This document shows positions 12,357-23,387 of a stretch of DNA of 59,663 bases, piece after piece (position 1 is the first letter of the stretch; every line of letters begins with the position of its first letter). Source of the stretch: Nitrospinota bacterium (GTDB taxonomy: Bacteria > UBA8248). A model generated the notes under the pieces. The model did no database searches, was not told the origin of the DNA, and saw only the letters and a program-made list of their open reading frames with translations. Location of the stretch: the NCBI GenBank assembly GCA_030754595.1, contig JASLZZ010000096.1, positions 1 to 59,663 of the forward strand. The letters run 5' to 3'. A program made the position numbers and the translations under genes.

Positions 12357-12671
12357 TTACCGCCAAAAATCCTCCCGGTCCTCGGGCCGCACTTCATGTT
12401 TTTCCTGGATTCGTTTTTCGAATTCGGCTGTTACTTCCTCCTTCCGCGACTTTTGCTGAGCCATCAACTCGTTGAATCCGGGGGTCTTCTTTTTGGCGGC
12501 TTCGGCGAACGGGTCCTTCACATGATGCCGCGCAATGGAAATGAGATCTCCCCTGATTTCGATTTTGAGTTGATTTCCCGGAACCATACCGAGTGCTTTC
12601 ATCACTTCCTTCGGCAAGCGTATCCGTCCTCCGTCTCCAATCTCTTGAATGTAAATGTTTTTGTCTTCCAT
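12357..12671 (-). CDS. AbrB/MazE/SpoVT-family DNA-binding protein
   Basis: GRIRLPKEVMKALGMVPGNQL swapped-hairpin motif followed by a charged helical tail. Confidence 0.75.
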   Translation of the reverse strand: MEDKNIYIQEIGDGGRIRLPKEVMKALGMVPGNQLKIEIRGDLISIARHHVKDPFAEAAKKKTPGFNELMAQQKSRKEEVTAEFEKRIQEKHEVRPEDREDFWR

Positions 12672-12693
12672 GTCGGCATTCTCCCGTGCTTTG

Positions 12694-13098
12694 TTATTCT
12701 CCGGCCAGGCCGTAAGCCCCTTTTTCGCGTAGCGTTACGTTGGGGCCGGGCGGGGAGTAGATGACAACGTACTTTAACGGTTTGTCGCCCGTGCTGCTCA
12801 CTTCGTGCACCATTCCCGGAGGAACGAACACGGCGTCTCCCTCGGTGACCTCGAGGCGCTCATCTTCGATTCGAATGATACCTGTTCCGCTGAGTATGTA
12901 GAATCCGTGTTCCTCGTTGTCGTGCTTGTGGGCCTTGGAGGTTAGTCCCGGATCGAATTCGTTGACAAGCAGCGCGAATTTCTTGGCGCCAACGCTCTCT
13001 TCGTCGAGAAGAATGCGAAAAACACTTCTGCCGCCGGGGACCGGCAAATCACCGGTTGCGGCGTCCTCACGGCGGATTCTGTATGTTTTTTGGGTCAT
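12694..13098 (-). CDS. Cupin domain protein
   Basis: HKH...EH and GDAVFVPPGMVH cupin metal motifs. Confidence 0.85.
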   Translation of the reverse strand: MTQKTYRIRREDAATGDLPVPGGRSVFRILLDEESVGAKKFALLVNEFDPGLTSKAHKHDNEEHGFYILSGTGIIRIEDERLEVTEGDAVFVPPGMVHEVSSTGDKPLKYVVIYSPPGPNVTLREKGAYGLAGE

Positions 13099-13922
13099 GC
13101 GCGTCTCTCCGAAAACTGGCGGTACATGTGGTTGAGGGAGCCGTGTCCGCTTCCCAACTCAAGGGCGTGTTCGATGGCTCCCTGAATGTATTCTTTCGCG
13201 GCAGTCAGGGCGTCCCGGACCGGCTCTCCCTTTGCGAGTCCGGCGGCGATGGCGGATGAAAGGGTGCAACCCGTCCCGTGCGAGTGGGGCGTATCCACGT
13301 AACGGCCTTCAAGAATGAATATGTCATTCCCATCGTAGAATACATCGGTCGCGCCCCTGGTGATATGGCCGCCTTTCAGGAGAACGGATTTGGCGCCGAG
13401 GCTGTGAAGACGTTTGGCGGCATCTTTCATTTCGCCTAGATTCTCGATTCGTTCGATGCCGAGGATGTCCCTTGCCTCCTCGGTGTTGGGCGTGATGATC
13501 TCCGAGAGGGGGAAAAGACGATTGACGAGGGTTTCAACCGCATTTTCGGCCAGCAGGCGGTCCCCGCTTGTTGCCACCATTACGGGGTCGAGGACAAGGA
13601 GATTGATGCCATATTCGGCAATTTTTCTGGAAACGACCTCTATTACCCTAGAATCAGTCACCATCCCCACCTTGGCCGCTGCGACCGGGAGATCCGAGCA
13701 AATCGAATCAAATTGCTTAGCGATGAAGTCGGCCGGAACAGGGTGCACCCCTTGAACGCCAACGGAATTCTGAGAGGTGAGGGCGGTGATGACGGTGGTC
13801 CCGAATACACCGAACGCGGAGAAGGTCTTGAGATCAGCCTGAATACCTGCTCCGCCTCCGGAGTCCGAGCCGGCGATGGTGAGTGCGACGGGAAGCTCTT
13901 TCGAATGGTTTGTGGGGGCCAT
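13095..13922 (-). CDS. thiD: Hydroxymethylpyrimidine/phosphomethylpyrimidine kinase
   Basis: TIAGSDSGGGAGIQADLKT, DPVMVATSG, HGTGCTLSSA. Confidence 0.95.
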   Translation of the reverse strand: MAPTNHSKELPVALTIAGSDSGGGAGIQADLKTFSAFGVFGTTVITALTSQNSVGVQGVHPVPADFIAKQFDSICSDLPVAAAKVGMVTDSRVIEVVSRKIAEYGINLLVLDPVMVATSGDRLLAENAVETLVNRLFPLSEIITPNTEEARDILGIERIENLGEMKDAAKRLHSLGAKSVLLKGGHITRGATDVFYDGNDIFILEGRYVDTPHSHGTGCTLSSAIAAGLAKGEPVRDALTAAKEYIQGAIEHALELGSGHGSLNHMYRQFSERRA

Positions 13923-14111
13923 CGAACATCCCCTTAAAAGTAATTATATGACATAAAATCAAAAGGTTATAGAAGCTAACTTTGGCGTTTGAAAGAGTGC
14001 TCAAAAGCCTTAAGTTGATTTTGAATTTAACACCTTTGATTGGGAGAAACTATCCATTAGGGATTGGAGGGATAGGCAAAATAAGGTGAGTGATTTCATG
14101 CATTTGGAATT

Positions 14112-14144
14112 AATCTTGACAAAATAAATCGGGAATTATAGGGT
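14112..14144 (+). promoter_or_regulatory. sigma70 promoter (TTGACA 14116-14121, 17 bp, TAGGGT 14139-14144) overlapped by an IscR/Rrf2-type imperfect palindrome (14112-14136)
   Basis: AATCTTGAC-AAAATAA-ATCGGGAAT resembles the IscR type-1 consensus ATASYYGAC-TRWWWYA-GTCRRSTAT; an Rrf2 gene closes the downstream operon. Confidence 0.65.
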
Positions 14145-14208
14145 CACACCCTGAAGTTGCGGGTTCACCTGCATGGGGTCGTCCCTGAAGTTGCGGGTTC
14201 GCCTTCAT
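14141..14208 (+). repeat. Two imperfect 34-nt tandem repeats with an identical 18-nt core CCCTGAAGTTGCGGGTTC
   Basis: Core at 14149-14166 and 14183-14200; period 34. Confidence 0.9.
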
Positions 14209-14221
14209 AAGTGAGGGTTTT

Positions 14222-15181
14222 ATGGCTCTGGGGACGCGAGGAAGACCATCTCAGGTGCTGCGAGCGCTTCCGAATGTGCTCGAAAACATCGGAGGCACCC
14301 CCTTGGTCCGCCTGTGCAACCTGCCGGACCCTCATGGGGCCCGGATTTATGCCAAAATCGAGGCGATGAACCCCGGCGGGAGCGTGAAGGATCGCATCGC
14401 CCTCAGCATGGTACTCGACGCTGAGCATCGCGGCCTCCTCAAGCCGGGCTGCACCATTGTCGAGCCCACCAGCGGAAATACCGGCATCGGCCTCGCCATG
14501 GTGGGCGCGGTTCGCGGCTACAAGGTGAAAATTGTCCTATGCGAGAGCATGAGCCATGAGCGTCATGCCCTGCTCACCTCCTACGGCGCCGAGGTTGTAT
14601 TGACCGACTGCGACCAGGGGATGTATGGGTCGGTCCTCAAGGCCGAGGAAATAGTGGCCGAAAACATGGATTATTATATGCCCCAGCAGTTCAAGAACCC
14701 CGCCAATCCGGAGATTCACCGCCGGACGACGGCGCGGGAGATTGTCCGCGACATGGGCGCTCATGCGGTGGACGCTTTTGTCGCCGGGGTGGGCACGGGT
14801 GGGACCATCACCGGGGCGGGCGAGGTGCTCAAGGCCAAGAGTGGTGAGACGATCGTTGTGGGCGTTGAGCCGTCCGCGTCGCCGGTCTTGACCGGCGGGA
14901 AACCGGGTCCGCACCAGATTCAGGGAATCGGAGCCGGATTTATCCCCAATGTTTTGAACCGCGAGATCATTGACCGCATCGAGAAGGTTTCCGATCAGGA
15001 TGCGTATGACATGGCCAAGGCCTTGAGCCGGGAGGAGGGAATCGCCGCCGGGATATCGAGCGGCGCCTCCGTGTGCGCGGCTCTTCGGATTGCCGGGGAA
15101 ATGTCCCCGGACGAAAATGTCGTTGTCGTCCTGCCGGACGGCGCGGAGAGATATTTTAGTTTGGAGCAGTATTTTCGATAA
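14222..15181 (+). CDS. cysK: Cysteine synthase A (O-acetylserine sulfhydrylase)
   Basis: NPGGSVKDR (PLP Lys), EPTSGNTG, GVGTGGT, PHQIQGIGAG. Confidence 0.92.
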   Translation: MALGTRGRPSQVLRALPNVLENIGGTPLVRLCNLPDPHGARIYAKIEAMNPGGSVKDRIALSMVLDAEHRGLLKPGCTIVEPTSGNTGIGLAMVGAVRGYKVKIVLCESMSHERHALLTSYGAEVVLTDCDQGMYGSVLKAEEIVAENMDYYMPQQFKNPANPEIHRRTTAREIVRDMGAHAVDAFVAGVGTGGTITGAGEVLKAKSGETIVVGVEPSASPVLTGGKPGPHQIQGIGAGFIPNVLNREIIDRIEKVSDQDAYDMAKALSREEGIAAGISSGASVCAALRIAGEMSPDENVVVVLPDGAERYFSLEQYFR

Positions 15182-15209
15182 TATTCCACTAATCAGTATG
15201 GAGAGCGAG

Positions 15210-15488
15210 ATGTCAGTGACGGTTCGAATCCCCACACCGCTTCAGGAGTTCACGCAGAACAAGGACGCGGTGGATATCGACGGAAGCACGGTCAAGGAAG
15301 TATTGGGAAATCTTGACGCCCAGTTCGCCGGAATGCGCCAACGGCTGTACGGCGATGACGGCAAGTTGCGCCGGTTCGTTAATATTTATGTCAACCAGGA
15401 AGACATTCGCTTTCTTAAGGGAGAGGACACCGAAGTGAGCGAAGGAGATGAGCTTTCCATCGTTCCCGCGATTGCCGGAGGAAGGTAG
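15210..15488 (+). CDS. MoaD/ThiS/CysO-family ubiquitin-like sulfur carrier, C-terminus ...PAIAGG-R
   Basis: MSVTVRIPTPL, LRRFVNIYVNQEDIRF, ELSIVPAIAGGR; start at ATG 15210, 92 aa. Confidence 0.9.
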   Translation: MSVTVRIPTPLQEFTQNKDAVDIDGSTVKEVLGNLDAQFAGMRQRLYGDDGKLRRFVNIYVNQEDIRFLKGEDTEVSEGDELSIVPAIAGGR

Positions 15489-15494
15489 GAAATT

Positions 15495-16160
15495 TTGACT
15501 CTCGCCGAAAAGCAGGTACAGCGCTACAGCCATCATATCCTACTGCCCCAGGTGGGTGGAAAGGGACAGGAGCGGTTGCTTGCCTCGGCGGTCGCTGTTG
15601 CATTCGGCCCGGGCGGCGCGGGCGCTGCATCGGTGGCGGTGACTTACTTGGCGGCGGCCGGGGTGGGACGAATCGGCTGGTTGTCACTGACGGGCCCGGA
15701 AATGGCTGAATCGGGCTCTCTCGCCGAATTGATAGCGCTATACGCTCCCGGTGGTCCGGGAGAGTCCATTTCCGCGCTGAACCCGGACGCCCGCCTCAAG
15801 GTCATCGAGGGGGGCAAAGAGGAGATGGATGAATATGAGCTCCTCGTCTTGTCGGGTGATATTCGCCCTCTGGCCGTGGTTGCGGCCCGGTTCGAGGCGG
15901 CCGGAAAACCTGTGATCAAGGGGAGCCGAAATGGGTGGACCGGCGAGGTGGCAATGGGCCGGGGTGATTTGAGTAGAGATAGGTTGAAGCCGGACGAGGA
16001 CGAGGAACCGGCTCCGGCCGCTCCTACTGAGGGAGTGCTTGGCTCGGTGATGGCTTCTGCGGCGCTATGCGCTCTTTTGAAAGGAAATAAACCGGTGGGG
16101 TCGACCGTGCAGGCCCGATTTGATCTGTCGCATGGCCTCTTCGAGGAGGCGGTGCGATGA
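15495..16160 (+). CDS. Degenerate MoeB/ThiF-fold protein (pseudo-E1)
   Basis: Keeps RYSHHILLPQVGGKGQERLL, YLAAAGVGRI, LNPD and the GVLGSVMA helix; lacks DxDxV..SNLxRQ and both CxxC pairs; TTG start. Confidence 0.75.
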   Translation: MTLAEKQVQRYSHHILLPQVGGKGQERLLASAVAVAFGPGGAGAASVAVTYLAAAGVGRIGWLSLTGPEMAESGSLAELIALYAPGGPGESISALNPDARLKVIEGGKEEMDEYELLVLSGDIRPLAVVAARFEAAGKPVIKGSRNGWTGEVAMGRGDLSRDRLKPDEDEEPAPAAPTEGVLGSVMASAALCALLKGNKPVGSTVQARFDLSHGLFEEAVR

Positions 16161-16202
16161 AATGGGTCCTGATTACATCGGTAGGCAGGGATAAGGGAAA
16201 TT

Positions 16203-17171
16203 GTGCATCCCACGGGACCCGGTTCAGAGGAACATGGGCTAATTATGGTGGAGATGACTGCGCACGGTATACGGAAAATTGAGGAGTCGCCAATACTGCG
16301 GCAGATAGGGAATACACCGCTCCTGCCGATCAAGTTTCTTGAAAAGGATTTCCCGGAAGTCGAGGTTTACGCCAAGGCGGAGTGGTTCAATCCCGGCGGC
16401 TCCGTGAAGGATCGTCCCGCTCTTTCCATGGTGAGGGACGGGATCGAACGCGGCCTCCTCGGGCCGGGCATCACACTGATCGATTCTACAAGCGGAAACA
16501 CCGGAATCGCATACGCCATGATTGGGGCCGCGCTAGGGATTCCTGTCAAATTGGTCTTGCCCGAAAACGCGAGCGAGGAGCGCAAGGCCACGCTCCGGGC
16601 CTACGGCACCGATATCGTCTACTCGGACGCGCTCGAGGGCTCGGACGGGGCGCAAAGGCTGGCCGCCAAAATCTACGAGAAAGACCCTGAGGCGTATTTT
16701 CTGCCGTGCCAGTATGACAATCCCGCCAACCCGAGAGCGCACGAGGAGACAACGGCGCCCGAAATTCTGGAGCAGACTGATGGCCGCGTTGAGCATTTCG
16801 TCAGCTGCATGGGAACGACGGGAACGCTCGTCGGAACGGGCCGGGGCCTCAAAAAAAGAAAGCCCGGCGTGAAAGTGCATGCCGTGATGCCGTCGGACTC
16901 ATTTCACGGCCTCGAGGGAATGAAGCATATTCCCACGTCGATCCGGCCGAGGATATATGATGAATCCGTTCACGACGAACTTATCCCCGCCTCGACCGAG
17001 GAGAGTTGGGACCTTTCCGAGCAGTTGACGCGGGAGGAGGGTGTTTTCGTGGGCCACTCGGGCGGGGCTGCTCTCGTAGGTGTGAGCGAGGTGGCCCGCA
17101 AGGTGGGCCGTGGCGTGATTGTGACGATTTTTCCGGACGGGGGCGAACGGTATCTCAGTGAAATGAGATAA
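16203..17171 (+). CDS. cysM: Cysteine synthase B / CysM-type PLP sulfhydrylase
   Basis: NPGGSVKDR, STSGNTG, QYDNPAN, GTTGT, LEGMKH; adjacent to a carrier and a JAMM gene as in the mycobacterial mec-cysO-cysM locus; exact start uncertain. Confidence 0.8.
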   Translation: MHPTGPGSEEHGLIMVEMTAHGIRKIEESPILRQIGNTPLLPIKFLEKDFPEVEVYAKAEWFNPGGSVKDRPALSMVRDGIERGLLGPGITLIDSTSGNTGIAYAMIGAALGIPVKLVLPENASEERKATLRAYGTDIVYSDALEGSDGAQRLAAKIYEKDPEAYFLPCQYDNPANPRAHEETTAPEILEQTDGRVEHFVSCMGTTGTLVGTGRGLKKRKPGVKVHAVMPSDSFHGLEGMKHIPTSIRPRIYDESVHDELIPASTEESWDLSEQLTREEGVFVGHSGGAALVGVSEVARKVGRGVIVTIFPDGGERYLSEMR

Positions 17172-17178
17172 GCGGGGG

Positions 17179-17691
17179 GTGGAATTGCGGCTGACCCGGG
17201 AGCAAATCGATGTGATGAGCAGGCACGCCGAGGACGCCTATCCCGAGGAGTGTTGTGGTTTGATACTCGGCCCGCCCGCCGGCCCGCCCTCAAATGAGGC
17301 CGCCCGAAACGGGCGCGAGGAGGTGCGCCTGTTTCCGGTTCGAAATGTCCAGAACGAATATCACGAGCGTGACCCCGAGACCTATACGCGGACGGCCCGC
17401 CGCGCCTACCTGATCGATCCATTCGAGTTTGAACGCATTCTTGGGGAGGCGAAGGAGAGCGGCGAGGTGCTCCGCGGAATTTTTCACAGCCACCCGGATG
17501 AGGACGCCTATTTTTCTCAGGAGGACAAGGACGTGGCGGTGCCCTTCGGCGACATCCCCTCGTTTCCGGATGCCGAGCACGTAGTCATGAGCGTGCGAGA
17601 GCGTCGGGTCAGGGATTTTAAGGTGTTTCGCTGGTCTACGGAGGAGAAGGATTTCGCCGGTGGTGAACTCGCCGTGGATGGAGAGATTTGA
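17179..17691 (+). CDS. Mov34/MPN/JAMM metalloprotease (Mec-like)
   Basis: YPEECCG and HSHPDEDAYFSQED match the E..HxHx7SxxD JAMM motif. Confidence 0.9.
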   Translation: MELRLTREQIDVMSRHAEDAYPEECCGLILGPPAGPPSNEAARNGREEVRLFPVRNVQNEYHERDPETYTRTARRAYLIDPFEFERILGEAKESGEVLRGIFHSHPDEDAYFSQEDKDVAVPFGDIPSFPDAEHVVMSVRERRVRDFKVFRWSTEEKDFAGGELAVDGEI

Positions 17692-18467
17692 TGAGTTCCC
17701 CTGGCCGTCTCGCCGAGGCCTCGGTGCTTGTCCTGGGGGCGGGAGGGCTTGGATCCCCGGCCGCCCTGGCGCTGGCCGCCTCTGGAGTTGGCCGGATTGG
17801 GCTCGTAGATGACGATGTGGTGGATCTTTCGAATCTCGCCCGGCAGATACTTCACCGCTCGGAGGATGTCGGCCGCGCTAAGGTGGTGTCAGGGGCAGAG
17901 CGCCTTTCCCGCCTGGCACCCGGTCTGAGGGTGGAGACTTTTCCTGTCCGCATGACCGCCGGGAACGCCGCTGAATTGCTGTCGGGTTTTGACGTCGTTG
18001 TGGATGGCAGCGACACTATTTCAGCCAAGTTGATGCTCAACGATGCCTGCGTTCAGGATGGGCGTCCCCTCGTGGCAGGCGGGATTCTTCGGTTCTTCGG
18101 TCAAATTTTGACGGTCCTACCGGGAGAGACGGCCTGCTATCGGTGTGTTTTCGGGCGCATCGCTCCGGGCGGCGAAGGTCCTTCCTGCGGGGAGGCAGGG
18201 GTGTTCGGCGCCGTCGCGGGGGTAATCGGTATGGCGCAGGCGGCGGAGGCCGTCCGCCTTCTCTTGGGGCTTCGGCCGGCCTGGGCGGGAAAACTGCTGA
18301 CGGTCGATTTGTGGGACGGAAAATTCGGCGGAATTCGGGTTCAAAAGGACTCTTCGTGTCCCGCGTGCTCGGAAGCGGCTTTGGACTCCTGCGGGGATGA
18401 AGAAATACGCTCCGCGAAAAATACTGAAGCTTTCGGGAAGGAAGCCGTAATCAACGGTTTGAACTGA
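17691..18467 (+). CDS. MoeB/ThiF/HesA-family E1-like adenylyltransferase lacking the N-terminal helix
   Basis: GAGGLG, DDDVVDLSNLARQ, DGSD, CYRC, PSC, CPAC; in-frame TGA at 17664-17666 prevents N-terminal extension; TGATG coupling to the JAMM gene. Confidence 0.9.
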   Translation: MSSPGRLAEASVLVLGAGGLGSPAALALAASGVGRIGLVDDDVVDLSNLARQILHRSEDVGRAKVVSGAERLSRLAPGLRVETFPVRMTAGNAAELLSGFDVVVDGSDTISAKLMLNDACVQDGRPLVAGGILRFFGQILTVLPGETACYRCVFGRIAPGGEGPSCGEAGVFGAVAGVIGMAQAAEAVRLLLGLRPAWAGKLLTVDLWDGKFGGIRVQKDSSCPACSEAALDSCGDEEIRSAKNTEAFGKEAVINGLN

Positions 18468-18508
18468 CGGCCTCGGCGGATTGGGTCAAACGCTGAAGGG
18501 GGGAAGCG

Positions 18509-18964
18509 ATGAAAATATCCACCAAGGGCAGATATGCCGTTATCGCCATGATCGATCTGGCGCGGCATTCCCAGACGCATCCGATTCCTTTACCGCAAAT
18601 CGCGAGCCGGCAGAATGTCAGCCAACACTATCTCGAACAGCTTTTCGTCAAAATGCGGCGGGCCGAACTGGTGAAGAGCACCCGTGGGCCGGGGGGGGGC
18701 TACGTCCTGGCGCTTCCCCCCGTTCAAATTACGATGAAGGATGTTCTCAATGCCGTTGACGAGGAGATCGTGCCTGTGGACTGCGACAGCGATGGTGACT
18801 CCCATCCACCCAACCCGGCCGTAAGCGGCAGCCGCCAGCTTTGGATGAAGCTTGAAAAAGTCATCGAACGGACCCTGACGGAGACCACTCTGGAGGAATT
18901 GATCTCCGGTTTGGGGGATGAAGGTGGCGAAGTCAAGATACCTGACTTCCAGGTCAGCATTTAA
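18509..18964 (+). CDS. Rrf2-family transcriptional regulator (CymR-like; single Cys; C-terminal Ile)
   Basis: MKISTKGRYA, YLEQLF, STRGPGGGY; ends PDFQVSI. Confidence 0.9.
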   Translation: MKISTKGRYAVIAMIDLARHSQTHPIPLPQIASRQNVSQHYLEQLFVKMRRAELVKSTRGPGGGYVLALPPVQITMKDVLNAVDEEIVPVDCDSDGDSHPPNPAVSGSRQLWMKLEKVIERTLTETTLEELISGLGDEGGEVKIPDFQVSI

Positions 18965-18995
18965 GGGTCAACGCCCGGAAGCGCCGCTCGCCGGA

Positions 18996-20140
18996 GTGGC
19001 TGGGCGGCATCGTTGGGGGGCGCGTTTTTTGCGCCGCTTCTCCTTCTACCTATTGTTATTATTTGTTGGCGCTCTCGCCTCTTGCGCGGCCACCGCGGTG
19101 GGCCAGGGAATTCGCCTGGACTGAATTCAACTTCCTCCCGGATTTCAAATCTCCGTTTTGCCCGAAATGTTCCGGGAGCCCGGCCGATGGCACTGTCGCC
19201 GGCGGGCACTTTGTTTGTCGGGATCCGCAGGTCCGGCAGGGTTTATGTCATTCGCGATAAAGATCGGGACGGCAAGGCGGATGAGGTTTCCGTTATCGCG
19301 GAGGGCATGAATTCTCCAAACGGCGTTCCCTTCCGGAATGGTTCGCTTTATGTGGCCGAGATTAACCGCGTTCTGCGCTACGATAATATCGAGAATCGCC
19401 TCGGCAAACCGCCGGCGCCCGTTATCGTGAACGACAAGCTTCCCCGTGACTTGCACCATGGGTGGAAATTCATACGCTTCGGTCCCGATGGCCGGCTCTA
19501 CGTTCCCGTGGGCGCCCCGTGCAATATCTGCGAGCCGGGCGAGCCCTACGCCTCGATACTCCGTTTTCCGGAGACGGGAGACTCTTGGGAGGTGTTCGCG
19601 CGCGGCGTTCGAAACTCGGTGGGCTTTGATTGGCATCCCGAGACAAAGGAGCTTTGGTTCACCGATAATGGCCGCGATCAATTGGGCGATGACTTGCCCC
19701 CCGATGAGCTGAACCATGCTCACCGGAAGGGAATGCATTTCGGCTATCCCTATTGCCACGGGAAATCGATACTCGACCCCGAGTTCGGAAGAAACAAAAA
19801 TTGCCGATCATTCACCCCGCCCGCGGTGGAGTTGGGTCCCCACGTGGCTTCTCTCGGGATGCGGTTCTACGCCGGGAAAATGTTTCCGCCAAAGTACCGA
19901 GGCCGGATTTTCATCGCGGAGCACGGCTCTTGGAACCGGAGCGTGCCCTACGGTTACCGGGTGCGCGTGGTCCGCGTTGAAAAGGGAAGACTCGCCCGCT
20001 ACGAAGATTTCGCAGCGGGTTGGCTAAGGGGCGGAGTCGCCTGGGGCCGGCCGGTGGATATTCAGGTGATGCCTGACGGGGCCATTCTCGTATCAGACGA
20101 TTACGTGGGAGCGATATACCGGATTTCTTATCGGAAATAG
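18996..20140 (+). pseudogene. PQQ-dependent sugar (glucose/sorbosone) dehydrogenase family, disrupted
   Basis: Signal-peptide frame ...GQGIRLD*IQLPPGFQISV has TGA at 19122-19124, then a 1-nt deletion at the T4 run 19156-19159 shifts to FARNVPGAR; downstream HHGWK, RNSVG and HGSWNRS motifs; start uncertain. Confidence 0.8.
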
Positions 20141-20325: not shown

Positions 20326-23300
20326 ATGCACCGATCGATGCCTCCCCCCCCCGCCGACTCCTCCGGTGCAGAGGAGGCGTCCCTTTACTCGGCCATCAGC
20401 GCTACCGTTAAAAAAATCCTTCAGGAAAAAGATCTGAAACAGGGCCTCAAGGTGATTTGTGAGGAGGCGTGCCGAATCCTCGGGGCGGACCGTTCCCTTG
20501 TCATCCGGAGGATTGACGATTCAAACCAAAGGGAAATTCTGTATGCCAACAACATGCCCGTGGAATATCTCGAAAAGCTTGCCGCCAGCCGGGCCGAAAC
20601 GATGATGGCGGTTGTTTTTCGAAACCAAAAACTCAAGGTATTTTCGGATGTGGGCCGTGACTCGAATATTTTCGATCCGGAAGATATCCGAAAAATCGGG
20701 CTTCGCACCCTGTGTGCCATTCCTCTCGTCGTCGGAGGAGAGTCTTATGCCGCTCTTCTTCTTCACCACCTTAAAGAGCGGAAATACAGTTCCGGGGATC
20801 TTCAGATCGCCTAAGCCTTTGGCGACCTCGCTTCGATGGCAATTGAAAAAACTCTTTTGCTCGCCGAAAACGAAGACCGGGCGGCTCGGATGGAAATTGT
20901 CGGGAGAATCGCGAAAATCGCGGGTTCTTCCCTGGAGCCGGATGAGCTTTTCCGGGCCATCGCCAGGGAGATTCGCCACAGCGTTTGCTGTGATCGGTGC
21001 GTGGTGGGGAGCGTCGATCCAGAAACAGAGGTTATCCGCCAATTCGTTGAAGACGCAGACACTCCGATGGGGCCGCCCGCGAGTAATGAAGATCGAAAGG
21101 GCGGAATTATCACTCGATTCGTCTACGAAACAAGGCGGCCGGTCAACGTCCCGGATATTCCGGGGAGCCAATGGCGGGAGAGCCTGTATGTCAAGGCGGG
21201 GTATCGCAGCGCTCTGGTCATCCCCACCATCCAGGAGGGCCGCTGCGTCGCCCACATGAGCCTCCAGAGCAGACAAGCCAATGCTTTCTCCAAAGAACAC
21301 GAGGACCTGCTCAACTCCATCGCCAGCCACCTGAGCCCCGCTATCCGAAATGCCGGTCTCTACCAGGCTGCCGAAGATCGCGCCTCCCGCCTTGCCGTCC
21401 TGAACGAACTCAGCCAGAAGATCACCGAAAATCTTGACCTCAACGAGGTGCTCGATAATATTGCGCATGCTGCGATGAATCTCCTAAATGGAGACCATTC
21501 ACGGATTTTCCTCTTGGATGAAATCTCCGAGATGATCATTCTGAGGGCTTCGTACGGGGATGAGAGCGACCCTGGAGATACAAAAGATTCCTTCAGGCTT
21601 GGCGAGGGTTTCATCGGAAAGATGGTTCAGTCGGGCGACGAGGTGCTCATCGGAGATGTGCAGGAGGATCCTGCCTGGGTCAACGTCCGTTGGGCGAAGG
21701 AGTGGGACCTCCACTCCTATCTCGGACAACCCCTGCGCCGGGGGGGAAAGATCATCGGCGCGATCGTTTGCCTATCGAAAAATAAAGACGCTTTCGAGCA
21801 GGGGATTCAATCCTTCTAAATGCCCTGGCTTCCCAGGCCGCCATTGCCATCGAGAACGCGCGTCTTCACGAGAAGGCGCATCGCAGCCGGAATTTTCTCG
21901 AGAGCGTTGTTGGCGACTCCGCCGATCCGATTATCATCGTCGATCAAGAACGAAGAATCACCCTATGGAACTCGAGGGCCGAAGCGTTATACGGCTATAC
22001 GGAGGCGGAGGTCATTAGTCGCCATGTGAACCTGATCGTCCCGGAGGAATTAAGAGAGATTACGGATCGATTCAATGAAGAGTTGTTGGCGGAAGGAAAA
22101 CCGATCACCGTCGAATGCGAAAGGATTCGAAAGGACGGGACGGTTGTTTCTATTAGAACGACGCTTTCGCCCGTGAGTCTAGCGGACGGAACGCATATCG
22201 CCAACGCCGGAATCCATCGGGATATCACCGGACGAAAGCGAGCGGAAGAGGAGCTTGTTCGCGCAAAAAACGAGGCCGAATCGGCGAACTCGGCAAAAAG
22301 CGAATTCCTCTCCAATATGAGCCACGAGCTCCGCTCGCCGCTCAATGCCGTAGTCGGTTTCAGCGATATAATCCTGCTCCAGTCCGATCAGGAGAAAATC
22401 CGGGGATTCGCCGAAAAAATCAAGGACTCGGGCCACTATCTGACGCGATTAATCGAGGAGCTTCTTGATCTCGATCGGATTGACGAGGGAAAGGTCCGCC
22501 TCGAGATGGAGAATATTTCCATAAACGATCTTGTATCCGAAGTTGCCGCTGCGTGGCAGCTTCGGCTGCCGGATGAATTTTCTCTTCGATGCGAACTCGA
22601 TTTTAGCGGTGGCCCGGTATTTTGCGATCCGACGTGGATTAGGCAGATACTTACGAATCTTATGGAAAACGCCGTGAAATATTCGCACCGGGGCGGCCTG
22701 CTGACGATTCGGACGGAGGCAAAATCAGAGGAACTATGGGTGAGCGTTCAGGACGAGGGAATGGGAATCGATCCCGTAGATAAGGAAGTGATATTCGACC
22801 GTTTCCGGCAACTGGAGAGCGGTTACAGAAGAAGCGCCGGAGGATTGGGGATTGGGTTGAACCTTGTCCAGAAACTTGTCGAGCTTCACGGTGGCCGCGT
22901 ATGGGTGGAGAGCAAGAAGGACGTGGGAAGCGTGTTTACCTTCTCTTTGCCGTGCCCAGCGGTAAGGCAGGGAGAGCCCGATGTGGGCGGCAAGGAAGGC
23001 GGGAGCGGCGGCGCCGAGCCCTGGACCGGGAAACGCATTCTGCTGATGGACGATGTGGAACACTATCACGAATATCTGAGATTGCTCATGGACTCGGCCG
23101 AGGCGTTCTATTCCGCCTATAACGGCTTAGAAGGCGTGGAGGCGGCGATTCGCCACAAGCCCGATTTGGTATTGATGGACTTGCGTATGCCAGTGCTCGA
23201 CGGATTTGACACCACCGCCCGAATCAAGGCCGCGCACGAAACGCGGAATATCCCTCTCGTAGCCGTAACGGCGCAGGCAACGTACGAGGATAAGGAGAGG

Positions 23301-23387
23301 ATTAGTGCCGCGGGCGCGGACGGTTTCGTAACCAAACCCATCGGTCTCCAGCTCTTTCGGAAGACACTCGAAAATATATTTCGATAG
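20326..23387 (+). pseudogene. GAF-GAF-GAF-PAS-HisKA-HATPase-REC hybrid histidine kinase, disrupted
   Basis: In-frame TAA at 20812-20814 (QIA*AFGDLASMAIE); frameshift at the G4 run 21801-21804 into DSILLNALASQAAIAIENARL, continuous with PAS, SHELRSPL, G-boxes and REC (LMDLRMP, TKP). Confidence 0.85.

Follow-up and report, generated by a model that had tools for sequence, protein, structure and literature searches.

Two incomplete paralogues of the MoeB/ThiF-type activating enzymes (E1s) are encoded in one operon of the window, i.e. the whole stretch of 59,663 nucleotides analysed here (contig JASLZZ010000096.1 of the Nitrospinota bacterium assembly GCA_030754595.1). The product of the first gene (pseudoE1; 15495..16160) has lost the catalytic motifs and keeps an N-terminal Arg-finger segment, and that of the second (E1short; 17691..18467) keeps the catalytic motifs and lacks this segment. 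On balance, we favour the reading that this split E1 is an asymmetric heterodimer of an inactive and an active adenylation subunit serving a sulfur-carrier pathway. The two proteins probably bind each other, with the N-terminal segment of pseudoE1 probably acting in trans. The activating enzyme would have been divided by duplication and complementary loss into two MoeB-fold subunits.

Complementary anatomy of the two genes

E1short (258 aa, + strand) is a catalytic, N-terminally short MoeB/ThiF adenylyltransferase. It matched the Pfam ThiF model (PF00899) over profile positions 17-238 with 234 bits (gathering cut-off 28.1). ThiF was the only domain above the Pfam cut-off in its 258 aa, so that no catalytic-Cys or ubiquitin-fold domain was found, and it has no rhodanese domain either. 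The scores lay below the curated NCBIfam equivalog cut-offs (NF006444, the best, 270.3 vs 449; UbaA 227.6 vs 450; TIGR02356 ThiF 197.5 vs 275). The residues G16, G18, G21, D40, N48-L49-x-R51-Q52, K64, D108, C149, C152, C166, C223 and C226 were invariant in 23 E1short orthologues. They represent the GxGxxG loop (G16, G18, G21), the Asp after beta-2 (D40), the NLxRQ motif, the Lys (K64), the Mg-binding Asp (D108), the two CxxC pairs (C149/C152 and C223/C226) and the crossover-loop Cys (C166).

When E1short was compared using phmmer, its residue 6-7 was aligned to residue 25-27 of ThiF and to residue 29 of MoeB. The first ~22-24 residues, which form the Arg-finger segment, are missing. A longer N-terminus is excluded because an in-frame TGA (17664..17666, + strand) lies eight codons 5' of the start, and the ATG itself overlaps the stop codon of the preceding JAMM gene as TGATG. 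Of 33 locus rows, which represent 31 different loci (L139 and L004 are duplicated by L002 and L124), none has an RYxRQ-like motif in the open in-frame stretch 5' of E1short. This open stretch overlaps or abuts the JAMM gene (3-189 nt from the JAMM gene).

PseudoE1 (221 aa, + strand, TTG start) is a degenerate paralogue whose adenylation domain is inactive. The Pfam ThiF model matched residues 11-61 only, corresponding to profile positions 1-48 of 238 (33.8 bits), and the NCBIfam MoeB, ThiF and UbaA models matched residues 1-64 only. The sequence contains QRYSHHILLPQVGGKGQERLL. It retains the N-terminal Arg-finger segment (RYSHH in the window), the NPD motif and a conserved helix (residues 175-195), which may be the dimer helix named in the initial annotation, and its C-terminal ..FD.. 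strand region aligns to the end of MoeB-like proteins. An (S)NLxRQ motif and a CxxC pair are absent from the protein, and its single Cys, in AALCALL, has no MoeB counterpart. None of the catalytic motifs (nucleotide loop, Asp, NLxRQ, Lys, Asp and Zn Cys pairs) was conserved in the pseudoE1 family alignments. No Pfam or NCBIfam model is specific for the degenerate protein or for the fusion described below. The initial annotation had described both genes as complementary in this way, including the loss of the PSC cysteine from pseudoE1 and the stop codon ahead of E1short, and its description is confirmed, with the assignment of the dimer helix as a possibility.

An AlphaFold2 model of pseudoE1 was built on 27 relatives (mean predicted local distance difference test, pLDDT, 76.6; predicted template modelling score, pTM, 0.80). 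When the model was compared using Foldseek, it matched 1zud, 1jw9 and 1zfn with E-values of ~1e-11 and template modelling (TM) scores of 0.63-0.67 over 217-229 aligned columns (E-values 1.3e-11 to 1zud and 4.2e-11 to 1jw9; 223-225 columns). According to this model, pseudoE1 has the MoeB/ThiF fold (Rossmann-like E1 adenylation fold) across its entire chain.

Distribution, selection and relatives

The cross-genome survey suggested by the initial annotation was carried out on 51 genomes of the phylum using a pseudoE1 family profile and the Pfam ThiF model. The pseudoE1 profile matched in 30 of the 51 genomes with E-values of 5e-68 or lower. Elsewhere in the phylum its matches had E-values of at least 1e-21 and touched only the N-terminus of full-length E1s of ~400 aa, and in two genomes it matched nothing. 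An N-short E1 (ThiF profile start at positions 13-21) was present on the contig of pseudoE1 in 29 of the 30 pseudoE1 genomes; in genome G034 the match passes a TAG stop and for that reason begins at position 7. The contig of the remaining genome (G022) stops short of the expected site of E1short. Genome G009, from another family of the order, carries cysK-carrier-pseudoE1 at a contig end and cysM-JAMM-E1short-rrf2 on a second contig. Both genes were recorded in 30 genomes, one genome was undecidable (contig end), none had E1short alone and 20 had neither. In these 20 genomes only a full-length E1 of ~400 aa, or no E1, was found. The expected co-occurrence was therefore observed.

The gene order cysK-carrier-pseudoE1-cysM-JAMM-E1short-rrf2 is constant in all complete loci and is identical in six loci from a species-level genome collection. 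Because every complete orthologous locus has this order and none of the 33 rows has the motif upstream of E1short, the complementary pair is not a chance arrangement. The pseudoE1 family comprises ~63 clusters at 90 % identity, with lengths of 142-232 aa and identities down to 37 %. Its named members are labelled Nitrospinae/Nitrospinota, Tectomicrobia or "bacterium", and the next proteins in the list are ordinary MoeBs of 267-283 aa. The frame of pseudoE1 is intact and its length conserved in 28 of 30 phylum genomes; in G048 and G042 the match spans one stop codon, yet the frames taken from their loci are open.

In phylogenetic trees the N-short E1s formed one group (Shimodaira-Hasegawa-like approximate likelihood ratio test, 96 and 92 in two trees), and the pseudoE1 subclades mirrored those of E1short. 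On the long branches of these trees, pseudoE1 may or may not descend from the operon's own E1. A Nitrospinales locus without an adjacent pseudoE1 or JAMM gene (L017:5716-7882) carries in a row a carrier ending in GG-IH, a single full-length E1 of 268 aa and cysM. In this locus cysK and a ThrC-like gene precede the carrier, and the E1 occupies the slot of pseudoE1 between carrier and cysM. This arrangement is probably the unsplit state.

Selection was measured as the ratio of nonsynonymous to synonymous substitution rates (dN/dS) by the pairwise Nei-Gojobori method on codon alignments, using pairs with 0.05 < dS < 1.5 (255-316 pairs per gene or segment). The median was 0.357 for whole pseudoE1, 0.153 for residues 1-62, 0.470 for residues 63-175 and 0.313 for residues 176-221. 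The medians of the other genes were 0.092 (CysK), 0.091 (carrier), 0.097 (CysM), 0.131 (JAMM), 0.227 (E1short) and 0.128 (Rrf2). PseudoE1 is thus under purifying selection, which is strongest on the segment that is absent from E1short. The initial annotation had named neutral evolution of this gene, or a lack of conservation, as evidence against its proposal; the gene is conserved and its ratio of 0.36 is not neutral.

Among 23 pseudoE1 orthologues R10, Y11, S12 and H14 were invariant and R13 was conserved in at least 90 %. Arg (RYSRH) occupies the finger position in 29 of 31 different orthologues. Judged from these alignments, the domain has been stripped of its catalytic residues, and the finger residues are what it has preserved best. 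The window has His at this position (codon 13, 15531-15533), shared only with the 96 %-identical protein of genome G050 (L131), in which Pro18 is also changed to Arg in the same helix-loop. The caution in the initial annotation that this His might alter the chemistry holds for the window, where it is a local exception.

The conservation of pseudoE1 also bears on whether it is a functionless, decaying remnant of a duplicated or displaced moeB, as could be supposed from the loss of all catalytic motifs and from the highest dN/dS of the block. We consider this extremely improbable, as it is contradicted by purifying selection (0.36 overall and 0.15 in the N-terminal segment), the intact frame and conserved length in 28 of 30 genomes, a family of ~63 clusters, the confident MoeB-fold model, and the related degenerate domains in other phyla and in fusions.

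Single-chain fusions were represented by five listed proteins (448-490 aa), in which a degenerate N-terminal domain bearing the finger motif precedes a catalytic domain that starts at ThiF profile position 9-14. The family found with one of these N-terminal domains consists of 34 clusters of 465-627 aa, with one partial sequence of 350 aa among them. Its named members are from the Firmicutes (Thermosediminibacter oceani, T. litoriperuensis, Clostridium sp., Clostridiales and Syntrophomonas). In all 34 fusions R10, Y11 and R13 were invariant, as were the catalytic motifs of the second domain. One fusion, P0297 (627 aa; family P0266-P0296), bears an extra NifU/IscU-type domain (PF01592), a possible sign of a connection with persulfide or Fe-S chemistry.

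The AlphaFold2 model of the T. oceani fusion (pLDDT 85.9, pTM 0.90) was superposed through both of its domains on the bacterial E1 BilD (8tz0_A; Z 33.2, root-mean-square deviation (rmsd) 3.3 A, 384 residues, model residues 8-453) and on Uba1 and UBA6 (Z about 30, rmsd 3.0-3.3 A, 403-415 residues). Single MoeB/ThiF chains covered only the C-terminal domain, with similar Z. The Foldseek TM score normalised by query was 0.60-0.64 for two-domain E1s vs 0.44-0.45 for single MoeB/ThiF chains. This predicts that the fused relatives are pseudo-dimers in which the inactive domain precedes the active domain, the order seen in canonical E1s. By the classical gene-fusion argument, the existence of these fusions speaks for an interaction of the split pseudoE1 and E1short. 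In the trees the fusion C-terminal domains stood beside the N-short E1s and not within them, whereas their N-terminal domains had long branches and fell among the degenerate proteins. When longer proteins were searched for fused forms of the pseudoE1 of the window itself, none was obtained at E <= 1e-10, which is weak evidence. The fusions were found via a profile search. An alignment of fusions and split proteins was discarded for folding, as MAFFT had split the degenerate proteins, placing their N-terminal motif on the N-terminal domain and the rest on the C-terminal domain.

A profile search of 1.84 billion representatives gave eight proteins at E <= 1e-30 (the core family) and a long tail below. 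Degenerate proteins were defined by RYxRQ/H within the first 60 residues and no NLxRQ. By this rule 59 of the best 106 representatives (>= 170 aa) were degenerate, and 38 of the 59 still have two CxxC pairs. When 27 degenerate proteins of other lineages were aligned with that of the window, R10 and Y11 were invariant, and S12, R13, NP(D) and the Zn cysteines were kept in at least 90 %. About 65 of 80 metagenome loci held ordinary full-length MoeBs, matched via the shared N-terminal motif.

The pairing recurs beyond the phylum. A Myxococcales locus (L028) carries an N-short E1, TusA, a pseudoE1-like gene and JAB. In the metagenome loci L147, L149 and L194 a catalytic E1 lies directly 5' of ThiS, followed by (CysM and) the degenerate gene. 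Of these catalytic E1s, that of L194 is N-short, that of L147 has what looks like a decayed remnant of the segment, and that of L149 is cut by the contig start. The L147 protein (L147:3807-5693) has ~30 residues ahead of its first strand, reading RRRFERGIGPEERERL. From its sequence, this N-terminus looks like a decayed finger segment, intermediate between the full-length and N-short forms. A Vicinamibacterales locus that departs from this pattern (L007:2708-7125) holds a ThrC-like gene, a thiS ending exactly in GG, cysM, a gene for a NIL-domain protein, a degenerate MoeB gene and an ATP-sulfurylase-like open reading frame (by eye); its degenerate MoeB keeps both CxxC pairs.

The operon and a proposed mechanism

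The block consists of seven head-to-tail genes on the + strand with intergenic gaps of 0-42 nt. The first gene, cysK (14222..15181; O-acetylserine sulfhydrylase A type; PALP 261.5 bits, TIGR01139 425 bits vs cut-off 351), is syntenic in all orthologous loci. It is followed by the gene of a CysO-like sulfur carrier of the ThiS/MoaD fold (15213..15488; PF02597 ThiS 64.7 bits, NCBIfam SAMP1 60.6 bits vs cut-off 60) and by pseudoE1. The fourth gene encodes a cysM-type cysteine synthase dependent on pyridoxal phosphate (PLP) (16203..17171; PALP 223 bits; its best model, TIGR01138 cysM, gave 330.8 bits, below the cut-off of 394), and the fifth a Mec-like JAMM/JAB metallopeptidase (17179..17691; PF14464 Prok-JAB 65 bits). 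E1short and an IscR/CymR-like regulator of the Rrf2 family (18509..18964; PF02082 128 bits, TIGR00738 129 bits vs cut-off 73) complete the block, and a terminator-like hairpin lies 3' of rrf2 (19019-19035). All seven genes are on the + strand. The gene set of carrier-dependent cysteine synthesis, namely a ThiS/MoaD carrier with Gly-Gly, a CysM-type PLP enzyme and a JAMM peptidase, is thus found in one operon. Pfam and NCBIfam scans detected no gene for an E2-like (conjugating) enzyme among the seven.

The carrier ends in ..AIAGG-R, a single residue past Gly-Gly (15480-15488). In all 31 different orthologues an extension of 1-11 residues follows the GG: R (13), L (12), LY (2), G, C, VG or an 11-residue tail. 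A Shine-Dalgarno-like run, GGAGGAAGG (15477..15485, + strand), is encoded by the Gly-Gly-Arg codons of the carrier and lies 10-18 nt 5' of the pseudoE1 TTG. The start codon of pseudoE1 among 31 orthologues is TTG in 27, GTG in three and ATG in one. The TTG start and the carrier-encoded GGAGGAAGG suggest that translation of pseudoE1 is coupled to that of the carrier but weak.

No Rfam match at E <= 0.1 was obtained for 13500-19300, and no sigma-70-like promoter was detected in 13800-19300. Contigs from RNA libraries (four runs in three studies: hydrothermal vent, marine and 'metagenome') matched pieces of the operon with 0-9 differing letters each, in cysK, the carrier, cysM, the JAMM/E1short junction, E1short and the E1short/rrf2 junction. 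Pieces of <= ~50 bases with loose ends, mostly in cysK, may derive from other organisms. No contig fell on pseudoE1 (15494-16129), where the thin cover makes this uninformative on expression.

Carrier-dependent, i.e. protein-thiocarboxylate-dependent, cysteine synthesis would be the product pathway of the operon, following the scheme of CysO, CysM and Mec in Mycobacterium tuberculosis, with a carrier thiocarboxylate, CysM and release of cysteine by JAMM. Since the carrier ends in GG plus 1-11 residues in 31 of 31 orthologues, JAMM must first expose the Gly-Gly, and it would do so by trimming the residue(s) beyond it. Carrier maturation by the adjacent JAMM thus seems to be built in. Such trimming ahead of Gly-Gly activation has precedents in QbsD and HcyD. 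E1short, as the active subunit, would then bind ATP, Mg and the Gly-Gly at the carrier's C-terminus and form the acyl-adenylate. PseudoE1 would replace the second protomer of the MoeB dimer, and its N-terminal helix (RYSRH, in which Arg13 corresponds to MoeB Arg14) would cover the single active site of E1short in trans. The site on the pseudoE1 side would be dead and receive no finger, so one active site per dimer would be hard-wired, as it is in NAE1-UBA3, SAE1-SAE2, Uba1, BilD and yeast Tcd1-Tcd2. A persulfide donor would turn the carrier adenylate into the thiocarboxylate; both this donor and the order of reactions are inferred. Finally, CysM would couple the thiocarboxylate to activated serine, and JAMM would free cysteine from the carrier-Cys adduct.

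There is no sulfur donor within the block. The third ThiF-family gene of the genome is a rhodanese-MoeB (rhodanese by eye) on another contig (C34:57703-58908; L081:1108-2313). It is the sole full-length ThiF-family gene (401 aa), and it was the sequence N-terminal of its MoeB domain that was read by eye as rhodanese.

Two further regions of the window surround the operon. Divergently upstream, the minus strand carries genes for a MazE/AbrB-like small protein (12357-12671) and a cupin (12694-13098) and thiD (13095-13922), of which thiD and the cupin gene overlap by 4 nt within the region 12357-13922. On the + strand at 20326-23387, three consecutive open reading frames encode one GAF domain, two GAF domains, and PAS-HisKA-HATPase-receiver. 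They may represent either a fragmented or a frameshifted sensor kinase.

Known systems, competing readings and significance

Both window proteins resemble MoeB and ThiF (1jw9, 1zud) in fold, E1short resembles them in its nucleotide, Mg, Zn and Cys motifs, and the carrier is of the ThiS/MoaD fold with Gly-Gly. In contrast to MoeB and ThiF, the catalytic chain of the window has no finger segment and a second, dead chain keeps it. The E1s of the MoeB-MoaD and ThiF-ThiS systems are symmetric homodimers with two active sites (PMC12355090, partial text), and an N-terminal Arg of the neighbouring subunit (MoeB Arg14, ThiF Arg11) reaches the active site (PMC13139853, partial text).

The initial annotation had compared the pair with the eukaryotic E1s NAE1(APPBP1)-UBA3 and SAE1-SAE2. 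In these enzymes the inactive subunit supplies the Arg. They consist of separate inactive and active adenylation chains that form a pseudo-symmetric dimer, and Uba1 is a further asymmetric E1 of eukaryotes (PMC12355090, partial text). The comparison concerns the proposed architecture only: NAE1-UBA3 and SAE1-SAE2 carry catalytic-Cys and ubiquitin-fold domains and hand over to an E2, whereas E1short is a bare adenylation domain of 258 aa with proposed sulfur-transfer chemistry. Common descent of the two splits is not indicated.

The yeast Tcd1-Tcd2 heterodimer (tRNA ct6A dehydratase) pairs two ThiF-fold paralogues, as is proposed for the window, and the catalytically deficient one has the Arg finger. 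Arg59 of the degenerate Tcd1 completes the Tcd2 site, and this finger was found to be non-essential (PMC13139853, partial text). Unlike the window pair, Tcd1-Tcd2 is eukaryotic, has a tRNA substrate and no carrier protein, and its Tcd1 keeps more of the active site. BilD (8tz0, 8tyz), the E1 of the Bil antiviral system, is a single chain with an inactive and then an active adenylation domain that forms a pseudo-dimer; according to the same preprint, all bacterial E1-like proteins known until then form homodimers (PMC10557695, partial text). The fusion relative matched BilD best in structure (Z 33.2). The crossover loop of BilD contains a Cys domain, its partners are an E2 and a ubiquitin-like protein (Ubl), and it serves phage defence, whereas the window version is made of two genes in a cysteine-synthesis operon.

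The carrier-dependent cysteine operon type (ThiS/MoaD, E1-like, JAB, cysteine synthase) is listed in row 4c of Iyer et al. 2006 (PMC1779556, partial text), where it has one E1-fold gene vs two in the window. The operon resembles the CysO-CysM-Mec system of M. tuberculosis in having the carrier, the CysM-type synthase and the JAMM peptidase together. It differs from it in that its carrier would need C-terminal trimming and in that its E1 is dedicated, rhodanese-less and probably made of a dead and a live subunit, whereas the M. tuberculosis E1 MoeZR is a single full-length MoeB-rhodanese encoded elsewhere. In the literature searched, which did not cover Burroughs et al. 2009 on the E1-like superfamily, no split, fused or heteromeric inactive/active E1 in a sulfur-carrier pathway was met, and BilD is the only bacterial asymmetric E1 met in print there.

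Several points weigh against an asymmetric heterodimer. PseudoE1 evolves faster than its six neighbours (0.357 vs 0.09-0.23), and the window has His at the finger position. The TTG start in 27 of 31 orthologues may mean that synthesis falls below what a 1:1 partner needs, and together with the faster-evolving protein body it would be compatible with a regulatory or accessory function. The fusions are only distantly related to the window pair and are not orthologues, their predicted fold may lean on solved E1 structures learnt by AlphaFold, and long-branch attraction may be the reason why all degenerate domains group together in the trees. Among the degenerate relatives, that of the metagenome locus L168 has neither an E1 nor a carrier or CysM within 5 kb to either side, and that of L007 lacks a catalytic E1 both upstream (6 kb) and downstream (0.5 kb) on its 7-kb contig. 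Finally, the Arg fingers of MoeB (Arg14) and ThiF (Arg11) are non-essential for catalysis, and TcdA has none (PMC13139853, partial text). For this reason an E1short homodimer could be active, and pseudoE1 may contribute less by donating an Arg than by serving as a scaffold. By analogy with these enzymes, its main role may be structural, and the Arg-to-His change in the window fits a dispensable finger side chain.

These points bear on two other roles for pseudoE1. In the first, E1short is an ordinary finger-less homodimer and pseudoE1 is an accessory of the pathway off the E1 dimer face, which holds the carrier or docks CysM, JAMM or the sulfur donor. The dispensable fingers of MoeB and ThiF and their absence in TcdA (PMC13139853, partial text), the His of the window, the retained C-terminal ..FD.. 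strand region and the relatives in L168 and L007 without a nearby E1 agree with such an accessory. We nevertheless consider it unlikely, as it leaves unexplained why the finger segment is the most constrained part of pseudoE1, why E1short has lost this segment in every genome with pseudoE1 and in none lacking it, and why fusions in the order inactive-active occur in 34 clusters and are modelled as an E1-like pseudo-dimer.

In the second, pseudoE1 does pair with E1short, and acts as a brake or regulator that competes with homodimerisation (e.g. under Rrf2 control) instead of being a required half. The weak start codon TTG, present in 27 of 31 orthologues, points to sub-stoichiometric synthesis, the body of pseudoE1 is under relaxed selection, and for Tcd1 a role as regulatory subunit of Tcd2 has been proposed (PMC13139853, partial text). 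However, covalent 1:1 fusions are unfit for a titratable inhibitor and the finger residues are conserved, and we give this brake only a slim chance. The two-subunit E1 put forward in the initial annotation remains our preferred explanation, with the comparative tests of co-occurrence and selection passed and fusions in existence; the pairing need not be obligate as claimed there, the fingers being reported as non-essential (PMC13139853, partial text).

The E1s provide the textbook example of how a symmetric homodimer of bacteria (MoeB, ThiF) became an asymmetric enzyme in which one adenylation domain is dead and the other live. If the heterodimer is real, the operon would offer a small, expressible bacterial system in which to ask why E1s give up half their sites, with duplication and complementary loss caught at an early two-gene stage. 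The relatives retain unsplit (L017), intermediate (L147) and fused forms. Many genes labelled "MoeB/ThiF" or "hypothetical" would then have to be re-read as encoding non-catalytic subunits.

A broader proposal, which we hold only tentatively and would not yet bet on, is that bacteria hold a widespread, unnamed class of asymmetric sulfur-carrier E1s, two-gene or fused, with a non-catalytic, finger-donating MoeB protomer. If this is true, the pseudo-subunit, once freed, may have acquired another function, for instance the docking of the sulfur donor, CysM or JAMM to channel the carrier. The inactive/active architecture, deemed a hallmark of ubiquitin-type E1s, would then have arisen at least once, and perhaps first, in sulfur-transfer enzymes.

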